Shown here: positions 4,017-6,524 of the stretch, piece by piece
Position numbering within the stretch: position 1 is the stretch's first letter
How the letters are laid out: each line of letters starts with the position of its first letter
Origin: a virus
Taxonomy: Duplodnaviria; Heunggongvirae; Uroviricota; Caudoviricetes
Reading direction: 5' to 3' (one strand)
IMG/VR virus record: IMGVR_UViG_2802429240_000008
DNA: 44,891 nucleotides
Made by a program: the position numbers and the translations under genes
Notes under the pieces: model-generated
What the model was told of the DNA's origin: nothing
Seen by the model: the letters and a program-made list of their open reading frames with translations, nothing else
Databases searched by the model: none

Positions 4017-4238
4017 TCACCATGACTCTGCTTTTACAGGTAAACCATCACGACCAAGGAAGACTTTAATCATGGTTTCCTTAATACAGTGTTGTGTGGA
4101 AAAATCACGAATATAGAGCCGTTGTTTTTTAATGTTGTTTACCGAAGCAATATATGTTCTTCCTTTATGAATAACATAATCACCGGGAGTCACGCACTGA
4201 CGAGGAATCTCATCAGTTCCGAAGTGATGAGCAATCAT
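4017..4238 (-). CDS. kilR: Kil-like cell-division inhibitor (KilR family, 73 aa from second ATG)
   Basis: [22 protein letters not shown]... resembles Rac KilR as I recall it; the internal ATG at 4236-4238 has a GGAGA RBS 6 nt upstream, whereas the track ORF start at 4250 has none. Confidence 0.5.
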
Positions 4239-4412
4239 AATTATCTCCATTTTTACAAATGAACTTTGTTGATGCGGTGCCTGGTGCCTCCAGGTGACGT
4301 TAACCAGTTAACAATTAACGCCGGATACAGAGAATCCACCCATAACACTGTTTTTGGTTTTAACTGTTCCGCGTGCGCTTAGCCGCATTCACCGCATCAC
4401 AAAATTCACTTT

Positions 4413-4470
4413 AAAAAGGGCGGCAGAGCAGTCACGGAGTAAAACTGATTCCGCCAAACGCCACCAGAAA
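4413..4470 (-). ncRNA. dicF: DicF small RNA (53 nt, 4418-4470) plus 3' U-tract
   Basis: Reverse complement of 4418-4470 is TTTCTGGTGGCGTTTGGCGGAATCAGTTTTACTCCGTGACTGCTCTGCCGCCC, about 2 mismatches from the E. coli K-12 DicF sequence as I remember it, followed by TTTTT; located downstream of small dicB-operon-like ORFs. Confidence 0.8.
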
Positions 4471-4804
4471 ATTGATAACAGAGGGCGTTGTAGCGGGGGT
4501 GTCACTTAAGCGTATGGTCAACCTGACAACCCGGTGTCCTCAACGGGGAAGGAATAACCCCGCCATACTTACCGCCGCGCCATTTCGCGGAGTGCCACAA
4601 CCGGAAGCGCACGGTCGACGAAAATTTAACGACAGGCTATCTATGAACCAGCAACCTCGCCGTGCGCTTTCGTGTTATGGTCTGACTTTTCAGGGAAATA
4701 TCCTTTCAGTAAACTGTCAGTGCCGGATGCTCACCCGTGTCCGGCGCACGCACTCCACCTCACCCGTGGAGAACTCCTTAATCACCAACCCTCAGGAGGG
4801 TGAA

Positions 4805-5080
4805 ATGTCGACTGAAAATGATGAAATCATTAACTCCCTGATACGCCAGATTAATAATTTTGATAAAGCATTGCAGCATGCTGCGGCGCGTAGTGATATA
4901 ACTCTTTTAGCAATTTCATTTCTTGCATCTGTTATGGATAAAAATGAAGTCGTACGACAGAGTCTTGTTGATTATATCGACTCGCTTCAACCCGGCACTT
5001 TCAATCATGAGAGCTTCAATCATGAGAAAGAGCATGTTAAATCTGTTATTAATTCTCTTGTTTTGAATCAAAATAATTAA
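4805..5080 (+). CDS. Hypothetical protein (91 aa), AT-rich accessory gene
   Basis: ATG at 4805 preceded by AGGAGGG RBS; opposite strand to the surrounding leftward operon; the track ORF 4472-5080 extends upstream only because there is no in-frame stop and would run across dicF. Confidence 0.45.
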   Translation: MSTENDEIINSLIRQINNFDKALQHAAARSDITLLAISFLASVMDKNEVVRQSLVDYIDSLQPGTFNHESFNHEKEHVKSVINSLVLNQNN

Positions 5081-5378
5081 TGCTTTTTGTTGCAAAGTAA
5101 TTTTCAAGGGGTTCTATTCGAATCCCTTTCTTTTTCATTAACAAGCCAAACCCCTTATCAATGATGTTCATTAATTCCAGGAAGTATTTTTCATGCAAAT
5201 CCTGGTTATCAGAGAGTTGCTTCTCTTCGTACAACCCGATAAAGGCGCGACGCACGTTACCGGATATATTATCGATGGTTTCTTTTTCTACGGTACTCAG
5301 GTCAAGAGTCGCCAGTTGGGAACGAACTATATTCGCTGCCATTTCCTGGAATGGTATTGGTAAATCTTTAAATTCCAT
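5049..5378 (-). CDS. Hypothetical protein (109 aa from MEFKDL...)
   Basis: ORF in the leftward immunity operon; internal ATG at 5376-5378 has GAGG RBS; 3' end overlaps convergently with the 4805-5080 ORF by about 30 nt. Confidence 0.5.
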   Translation of the reverse strand: MEFKDLPIPFQEMAANIVRSQLATLDLSTVEKETIDNISGNVRRAFIGLYEEKQLSDNQDLHEKYFLELMNIIDKGFGLLMKKKGIRIEPLENYFATKSINYFDSKQEN

Positions 5379-5393
5379 CGTCAACCTCATCAG

Positions 5394-5609
5394 TCAGTAG
5401 TTTTCAATCACTCGTGAAACGTTTAATGCCGCGCTTTTTGCCAGAGTGGTAATATCCTGCTCCGCTGACGCCAGTTCTTTAGAGAGGCGCTCTTTATAGT
5501 CAGCAGCCCGCTTCAGGTCATTAATGGCGCGTATCTTCCCGCACATCCATTCGTAAATTTCATCATCGGTATAGCCTGGTGCGATGATGATGGGTTCTGG
5601 TTTCTGCAT
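5394..5609 (-). CDS. Small hypothetical protein (71 aa), YdfC-like position
   Basis: ATG at 5607-5609 with GAGGA RBS 8 nt upstream; third small ORF downstream of the dicA-like repressor. Confidence 0.55.
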   Translation of the reverse strand: MQKPEPIIIAPGYTDDEIYEWMCGKIRAINDLKRAADYKERLSKELASAEQDITTLAKSAALNVSRVIENY

Positions 5610-5995: not shown

Positions 5996-6056
5996 GATGA
6001 TAATTTAGTTTTCTCATGAAAATTGGTCAAGAGTTTTTGGTGAGAAAACTCAATAT
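5996..6056 (-). promoter_or_regulatory. Candidate leftward promoter (TTGACC-N17-TAAATT on minus strand) flanked by two repressor-operator-like inverted motifs
   Basis: Minus strand reads TTGAGTTTTCTCACC..CTCTTGACCAATTTTCATGAGAAAACTAAATT; motif GAGAAAACT occurs at 6041-6052 and inverted at 6007-6016, and again at 6575-6588. Confidence 0.4.
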
Positions 6057-6116: not shown

Positions 6117-6524
6117 TTATTGATGTTTGTTACGTTTGCGAGCTTCTAGTAGCTCGGTGAATAGGCGATTAAAATTCTCAACGCGGGCACGGAGTTCGCT
6201 GATTTGTGCTTGCTGCTCTGATTTTGGAAGTGCGCGATACAATCGCAACATCTCCAACTCATCTTCCGATAAGTCTAAGGCGCTGTTGAGTGCAACTGGT
6301 GGATCTGGTGTTTTATCCTCGTCACCAAACAGTATCCAAGTTGGTGAACATTGCAATACCTCAGCCAGGCGATGCAAATTTTGCCCGCGCGGGGCTGTAT
6401 GGTCGCTTTCCCATAGTGAAATTGATGAGCCAGATACGCCAGCAGCTTTGCTTAAATCGTTTTGACTTAAACCAACCTGTTTGCGTCTTTCTCTAATTCG
6501 TTGACCTAAAGTTTTCTCGTTCAT
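6117..6524 (-). CDS. dicA: DicA-like HTH (XRE family) prophage repressor, 135 aa
   Basis: N-terminal HTH (LGQRIRERRKQVGLSQNDLSKAAGVSGSSISLWE) and C-terminal LQCSPTWILFGDEDK...ELRARVENFNRLFTELLEARKRN closely resemble E. coli DicA as I recall it; same length; divergent from a Cro-like gene. Confidence 0.85.
   Translation of the reverse strand: MNEKTLGQRIRERRKQVGLSQNDLSKAAGVSGSSISLWESDHTAPRGQNLHRLAEVLQCSPTWILFGDEDKTPDPPVALNSALDLSEDELEMLRLYRALPKSEQQAQISELRARVENFNRLFTELLEARKRNKHQ

Follow-up and report, generated by a model that had tools for sequence, protein, structure and literature searches.

The dicBF locus is a textbook prophage operon, encoding a small RNA together with an inhibitor of cell division. 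Early-left operons of this type (ydfABC-dicF-dicB) are repressed by DicA and are silent in standard growth (PMC5069750). In the Rac prophage of K-12 the gene order is racR(-), ydaG(-), ydaF(-, DUF1391), sieB(+), kilS(-), kilR(-), with sieB on the plus strand, convergent to the small early-left genes and a few hundred bp from the repressor. SieB is membrane-associated. In phage P22, sieB is under the control of an antisense RNA, sas (PMC12197685), and accessory (“moron”) loci characteristically have genes that run antisense to lytic ones (PMC7067206). Lambdoid morons and accessory loci such as lom, bor, rexAB and bstA are, by the Juhala/Hendrix definition, present or absent between collinear genes. 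In polymorphic toxin/immunity loci a conserved N-terminus is followed by a variable C-terminus, and a small cognate gene lies next to the toxin gene. The immunity gene is convergent in the operons of pore-forming colicins.

The window that we analysed (the whole stretch of 44,891 nt; IMG/VR virus record IMGVR_UViG_2802429240_000008) carries a Qin/Rac-like lambdoid prophage. Along its minus strand lie, in order, the repressor, a PL-like promoter, ydfA (DUF1391), a ydfB-like ORF, ydfC, a 109-aa gene, a leader, DicF and kilR, and a 91-aa ORF runs in the opposite direction between the 109-aa gene and DicF. The resulting arrangement (repressor(-), ydfA-C(-), 109-aa gene(-), plus ORF(+), DicF(-), kilR(-)) places this plus ORF in the topological slot of sieB, as the original prediction had suggested by analogy: Rac sieB(+) is likewise convergent to ydaF, between the early-left genes and kilS/kilR. 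Like the lambdoid morons, the plus ORF is present or absent between collinear genes; it resembles them further in its deviant GC content, its candidate promoter and terminator, and its orientation opposite to the lytic genes. With slightly better than even odds (roughly 55%), we read it as an independently transcribed moron gene that is probably on in the lysogen and is shut off by convergent early-left transcription. It is best filed with the prophage accessory genes of the moron, sieB-slot kind; the architecture of the cassette that carries it is unusual.

We also considered the plus ORF as a SieB and rejected this assignment. BLASTP of the plus protein against Rac SieB gave E 1.7 over 10 residues, with no Pfam match, and a protein of 91 aa, soluble and acidic, contrasts with the 162 aa of Rac SieB and with the membrane protein of ~160-190 aa that would be expected. 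No internal Esc-type start is evident in the plus ORF.

The features of the locus are collected in Table 1. The original prediction described two AT-rich ORFs without a recognisable domain, converging and overlapping between a ydfC-like gene and dicF, the plus-strand one behind a strong ribosome binding site, and this description stands throughout. The two frames converge and share their 3' ends, the Shine-Dalgarno (SD) sequence of the plus ORF has near-optimal spacing, and ydfC and DicF flank the pair, both on the minus strand. GC content is 0.348 in the plus ORF and 0.370 in the minus ORF, against 0.546 in the dicF leader, 0.487 in ydfA-ydfC and 0.498 in the whole window. Searches of Pfam, NCBIfam and PADLOC returned no domain for either protein, and RefSeq annotates both as hypothetical. 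The minus frame also allows a longer reading from an ATG at 5390, which has no SD.

Table 1. Features of the convergent pair and its surroundings (positions in the window).
Feature	Position	Strand	Remarks
kilR	4017-4250	-	Rac-type FtsZ inhibitor; NCBIfam E 2e-41; phrog_294
DicF sRNA	4418-4469	-	Rfam 69 bits
Candidate sigma-70 promoter of plus ORF	4687-4715	+	TTTTCA, 17-nt spacer, TAAACT; PWM 11.0
Predicted structured 5' UTR	4720-4804	+	hairpins 4720-4747, 4753-4771, 4782-4803
SD and almost whole plus ORF	4769-5058	both	replaced by 61 nt in L004 and L005
Whole two-gene module	4791-5405	both	absent from K-12 Qin
Shine-Dalgarno AGGAGGG	4794-4800	+	4 nt upstream of plus-ORF ATG; within start context CCCTCAGGAGGnTGA(A)ATG
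Plus ORF (type A)	4805-5080	+	91 aa; ATG 4805-4807, TAA 5078-5080
Minus gene	5049-5378	-	109 aa from MEFKD; early-left gene
3'-3' coding overlap of plus ORF and minus gene	5049-5080	both	32 nt
Terminator-like hairpin	5106-5136	+	9 bp (5106-5128), then TCTTTTTC; z -2.9
ydfC	5394-5609	-	phrog_1744; named ydfC in related E. coli loci
PL-like promoter	6002-6030	-	TTGACC, 17-nt spacer, TAAATT; early-left operon incl. minus gene; just downstream of repressor gene
DicA-like HTH repressor gene	6117-6524	-	separate unit from early-left operon

In one respect the original prediction has to be corrected. It had embedded the pair in a “lysogeny-expressed immunity operon,” and the host operon is instead of the DicA-repressed, dicBF early-left type, silent in standard growth (PMC5069750), with the repressor gene forming a separate unit. 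Lying inside this operon, the minus ORF should therefore be off in a lysogen; the plus ORF would be the only one of the two expressed there, provided that its candidate promoter works. The leader upstream of DicF (4470-4790, ~320 nt) has 96.7% identity to K-12. Beyond DicF, kilR stands where dicB-ydfD would be expected, and homology to K-12 Qin resumes at 3978-3900; with kilR in place of dicB-ydfD, the early-left arm is a Qin/Rac mosaic. Between DicF and kilR, 4231-4416 on the minus strand matches STnc100 in Rfam below threshold (38.3 bits against a gathering score of 47), and K-12 Rac has an annotated sRNA, kilS, at the corresponding place upstream of kilR.

Comparison with related prophages, which the original prediction had proposed as a check, identifies the pair as an insertion relative to K-12 Qin. 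The latter aligns to window positions 5995-5406 and 4790-4258 and has 36 nt where the window has ~615 nt, in agreement with the original prediction that the K-12 locus has no genes here. The plus ORF alone is missing from L004 and L005, prophages of O111 and O157 in which the minus gene, in a 124-aa version, stands by itself. Of 5426 complete E. coli genomes, 1597 have homologues of the minus gene and 198 have the plus ORF, so that the minus gene is often found without its convergent neighbour.

The conserved part of the minus protein is its N-terminus. The whole protein matches phrog_6937 (E 9.1e-67, residues 1-107 on profile 1-107 of 124), and further matches, to phrog_1363, 2151 and 9419, cover its first ~55-65 residues; together with the aligned C-terminal variants, these matches define a conserved N-domain (~55 aa, MEFKDLP...) joined to interchangeable C-termini. 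The gene has a pN/pS of 0.39, its homologues form 232 protein clusters, and the AF2 model is helical (pLDDT 66.5). PADLOC 2.0 gave no match for the minus protein, and all matches of a profile search with the N-domain were hypothetical proteins or fragments from Escherichia. The N-domain is also found away from dicF in Stx phages, e.g., PA2 gp25.

Scanning IMG/VR for the end of the leader with its SD (pattern GGAGAACTCCTTAATnACnAACCCTCAGGAGGnTGA) retrieved at least 120 loci, in which five ORF families share the leader, the SD and the ATG, 123/128 loci being intact. These families are type A (91 aa, possibly a distant phrog_18692 relative, partner variant of 106/109 aa, 198/5426 E. coli genomes), type B (77 aa, phrog_10348, partner 135 aa, 650/5426), type C (92 aa, phrog_18692, partner 133 aa, 127/5426), type D (73 aa, phrog_7249, partner 124 aa, 88/5426) and type E (63 aa, phrog_2605, partner 201 aa, 8/5426); with the per-family counts summed, they occupy 1071/5426 complete E. 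coli genomes, or about a fifth. Within-family pN/pS is 0.31 for A, 0.37 for B, 0.15 for D and 0.77 for E. All five ORFs run into the 3' end of the N-domain gene, with an overlap of 11-41 nt, and each family is paired with one C-terminal variant across ~125 loci. The C-domains that accompany types A, B and C have no detectable homology to one another. The same C-domain, differing only in its last 4-22 residues, accompanies ORF A, the unrelated ORF D or no ORF at all.

A second IMG/VR scan, anchored further upstream in the leader, added three states: empty K-12-like sites, sites with the 124-aa gene only, and sites with a second start context (ATGGAGGATAAAATG) behind the same leader (loci L135-L233). 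The second context carries six more convergent ORF families of 57-101 aa, most with an N-domain partner of their own (112-216 aa), which they overlap by 0-44 nt or not at all. One of these families has a CPxC...CPxH zinc-ribbon-like motif. Type I (94 aa, MAKFTVRIEL...), also of the second context, reaches the threshold of Pfam GhoS PF11080 (21.2 bits vs a cut-off of 21); types A-H, J and K have no toxin, antitoxin or immunity match in Pfam, NCBIfam or PADLOC, and the other slot ORFs were also negative in PADLOC 2.0. Among loci with complete flanks, a sample picked by sequence pattern and hence biased, the N-domain gene is present in 115 and absent from 5 where there is a convergent ORF, and present in 19 and absent from 41 where there is none. 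This co-occurrence (115 vs 5) makes the convergent pair a recurrent architecture rather than a one-off. Judged by sequence comparison, the pair is the type A allele of an accessory module of two genes that recurs between ydfC and the DicF leader and is highly polymorphic.

This module departs from ordinary morons in having a fixed leader, SD and start behind which unrelated ORFs are exchanged, and in that the convergent ORF directly adjoins, mostly with an overlap, a partner gene that changes its C-terminus along with the ORF. The last feature is shared with polymorphic toxin/immunity loci, from which the module differs in its very small domains and in lacking both toxin/immunity homology and a secretion signal; unlike a strict toxin/immunity pairing, it also joins one C-domain to two unrelated ORFs or to none. 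The PHROG families concerned (phrog_6937, 1363 and 2151 for the minus gene, phrog_18692 for the plus gene) have no assigned function, and our literature searches found no description of the convergent module. Published leads on antisense transcription at dicF (PMC10349824) and on Gifsy-1 STMMW_26411 (PMC7067206) could not be linked to the locus. ORF type is associated neither with the downstream DicB/KilR nor with the presence of ydfC. Type A carriers include NCTC86 and M1/5. Carriers of type B include EHEC O157:H7 strains, and this type also occurs in the isolated temperate phage Evi and in PPompW prophage records; the type A ORF is in no deposited phage genome, and many carriers may be cryptic prophages. 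Two scans of the GTDB species-representative genomes gave no match to the start context.

The plus ORF is preceded by elements that could make it a transcription unit of its own. The candidate promoter is among 5 plus-strand sites that score at least 11 in a PWM scan of the 44.9-kb window, where the score is 10.98 for the PR-like and 13.1 for the PL-like site; it falls under the cut-off of a simple consensus scan. Judging from the position of the -10 hexamer, transcription would start at the base of the first 5' hairpin (~4721-4723). The plus-strand RNA of 4720-4812 has a predicted fold of -37.3 kcal/mol (z -3.86, 0/200 shuffles as good), whereas the strand complementary to the 5' UTR gives a z of only -0.78. 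Across 17 leader variants 99% of the cells in the hairpins are paired, and helix 1 has three invariant G-U pairs. The changes among these variants are one-sided (CG to UG, GU to AU) with no compensatory ones, so that covariation speaks neither for nor against the fold. Both promoter hexamers are kept in all leaders, and promoter candidate and hairpins are equally conserved in loci without a convergent ORF, K-12 included, so that the ORF cannot be given as the reason for their conservation.

The SD lies within an imperfect palindrome, CCCTC-AG-GAGGG (4789-4800), and is partly paired in the predicted plus-strand fold (4782-4786 with 4799-4803; 4789-4790 with 4795-4796), which hints at regulated initiation of translation. 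At the other end of the unit, the terminator-like hairpin begins 26 nt past the plus-ORF stop, inside the minus gene, and has two stem mismatches in the ORF-less locus L004; no such hairpin is evident after the ORFs of types B, C and E.

The plus protein is predicted to be small, soluble and helical: it is acidic (pI 5.1), with a GRAVY of -0.31, a longest hydrophobic run of ~13 residues and no TM segment, and the AF2 model (pLDDT 67.6) has four short amphipathic helices. It may be a distant relative of phrog_18692, to judge from a weak profile match (E 0.018, residues 9-88 on profile 6-89 of 92); the type C ORF is a strong member of that family (E 5.9e-63), and hhalign of the plus ORF with type C gives E 5.7e-4 over 78 columns at a probability of 29.5%. 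Fold, domain and defence-library searches gave no match that would assign a function to either protein. Among the PADLOC 2.0 component models there was no accepted match for the plus protein (best BrxA, E 0.014, 12.7 bits), and sequence searches of PDB chains found nothing below E 0.17.

What the sequences show is the anatomy of the locus, its polymorphism, the selection on the coding frames and the joint occurrence of the two genes; promoter activity, lysogen expression, the antisense shut-off and any phenotype belong to an inferred course of events. In this scenario the minus gene would be an ordinary member of its operon, transcribed from the PL-like promoter near 6030 only once the DicA-like repressor is lifted. 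The plus gene would form a separate, opposite unit made up of candidate promoter, structured 5' UTR, SD, ORF and terminator-like hairpin; its transcription in the repressed prophage would yield a helical protein, small and soluble, that serves as an accessory factor of the moron type. Firing of the early-left operon would turn the plus gene off, through collision of polymerases and pairing with the fully complementary operon RNA, in a geometry that resembles the sas/sieB antisense switch of P22. Transcription of the plus strand should also lessen leaky read-through into the toxic dicF and kilR. The shut-off and the damping of leakage are read from geometry and sequence predictions. As to the role of the plus protein, our leading guess is that it excludes other phages or modulates the host, and it may be matched to its neighbour's variable C-terminus.

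We weighed other readings of the locus as well. That it is a chance opening in AT-rich filler, with only the minus gene real, we regard as very improbable, even if its relatives form an orphan set (only 15 protein clusters, all Escherichia and all close, with no distant homologues found by phmmer among 1.84 billion representative proteins), some alleles are frameshifted (P0131, P0133) and the structure model is of low confidence. The check on plus-ORF conservation that went with the original prediction found its reading frame under purifying selection: pN/pS is 0.36 against the diverged allele in L006 (87% identical), the lowest among the six frames, and 0.31 across 10 alleles; indels between alleles of the ORF are in frame. 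The ORF is intact in 32/32 type A loci, the other five frames over it hold 2-18 stops each, and only 0.135% of shuffles of 4808-5077 lack an in-frame stop, i.e., the chance probability of such an open frame is 0.00135. Near-optimal SD spacing points the same way, as do the hundreds of genomes with unrelated, intact ORFs beginning at this start; on this evidence the plus ORF appears to be a true gene. The selection on its frame also bears on an RNA role, in which the antisense leader transcript would block or process leaky early-left RNA ahead of dicF and kilR/dicB and the protein would be secondary. The promoter candidate and plus-strand-specific hairpins conserved without an ORF, as in K-12, would suit this role, as would a convergent geometry upstream of two toxic products (PMC5069750). 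A role confined to RNA needs neither coding selection, nor a strong SD kept before unrelated ORFs, nor at least 10 other ORF families kept open, all of which count against it, and we consider it unlikely.

A further reading takes the two genes as a cognate pair, with the plus ORF an exclusion or abortive-infection effector or a toxin and the N-domain protein its neutraliser by way of the variable C-terminus; by analogy with Esc for SieB or with BstA/aba self-immunity, the neutraliser would let the phage's own growth proceed. Such a dependence would fit the rarity of convergent ORFs without the N-domain gene (115 with, 5 without), the occurrence of the N-domain gene alone (19 loci, and Stx phages such as PA2), the single C-terminal variant per ORF family across ~125 loci and again in the second start-context set, and the 3' overlap in types A-E and several families of the second set. 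The same C-domain nevertheless stands beside ORF A, the unrelated ORF D or nothing; co-variation would also arise, with no interaction, from linkage between two conserved recombination anchors, namely the leader and the coding region of the N-domain; the loci were sampled by pattern, which makes the set biased; and homology to toxin, antitoxin or immunity families is absent. On balance we hold the cognate pair possible, though doubtful. Its extension to the whole slot as an exclusion/escape locus, in which the ORFs would be anti-phage or toxic effectors, the N-domain protein an allele-specific neutraliser and antisense transcription of the DicF operon the shut-off on induction, is a long shot. 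If true, it would mean at least 11 new mini defence/self-immunity pairs on one regulatory chassis in ~20% of complete E. coli genomes.

The reading of the plus ORF as a moron gene has consequences of its own. If the ORFs are expressed in lysogens, the slot is a compact natural library of at least 11 unrelated proteins of 57-101 aa behind one promoter, UTR and SD, and such a library would be a convenient source of new exclusion, anti-defence and host-modulating factors. The locus also offers a simple model of antisense or transcriptional-interference control over toxic prophage genes. Should the ORFs have no phenotype, it would be an ordinary mosaic hot spot.

Several smaller observations concern the plus ORF and the leader. 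The plus frame stays open for 111 codons further upstream, through the antisense of the DicF leader, and several public records give an N-terminally extended product (e.g., P0122, 145 aa, 481 member sequences). Two observations led us to reject this long reading (4472-5080, 202 aa; given as 145 aa in some records): L009 and L011 do not keep the frame open, and out-of-frame indels occur in the leader alignment. The extension is probably a misannotation. Within the plus ORF, 5000-5029 (+) is a 15-nt tandem duplication (TTCAATCATGAGAGC / TTCAATCATGAGAAA, coding FNHES / FNHEK), one copy of which is missing in alleles P0125 and P0126; H52 spans 245/260 nt. In the leader, L106 and 3 other IMG/VR loci have a deletion between direct repeats CACCCGTG (equivalent to ~4737-4768), which joins the 5' half of hairpin 1 to the 3' half of hairpin 2 ahead of a type B ORF. 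K-12 Qin (L003 3563-3640; window 4687-4790) has the plus-strand promoter candidate and the two upstream hairpins without a convergent ORF, helix 1 differing from the window by a single G-to-T mismatch; if active, this promoter candidate would drive an RNA antisense to ydfC. Lastly, E. coli RM8082, a type A carrier, has a RelE/ParE-family toxin gene with a small upstream ORF between the repressor and ydfA (L007 3922-4395), and this interval is a second accessory insertion point of the early-left arm.
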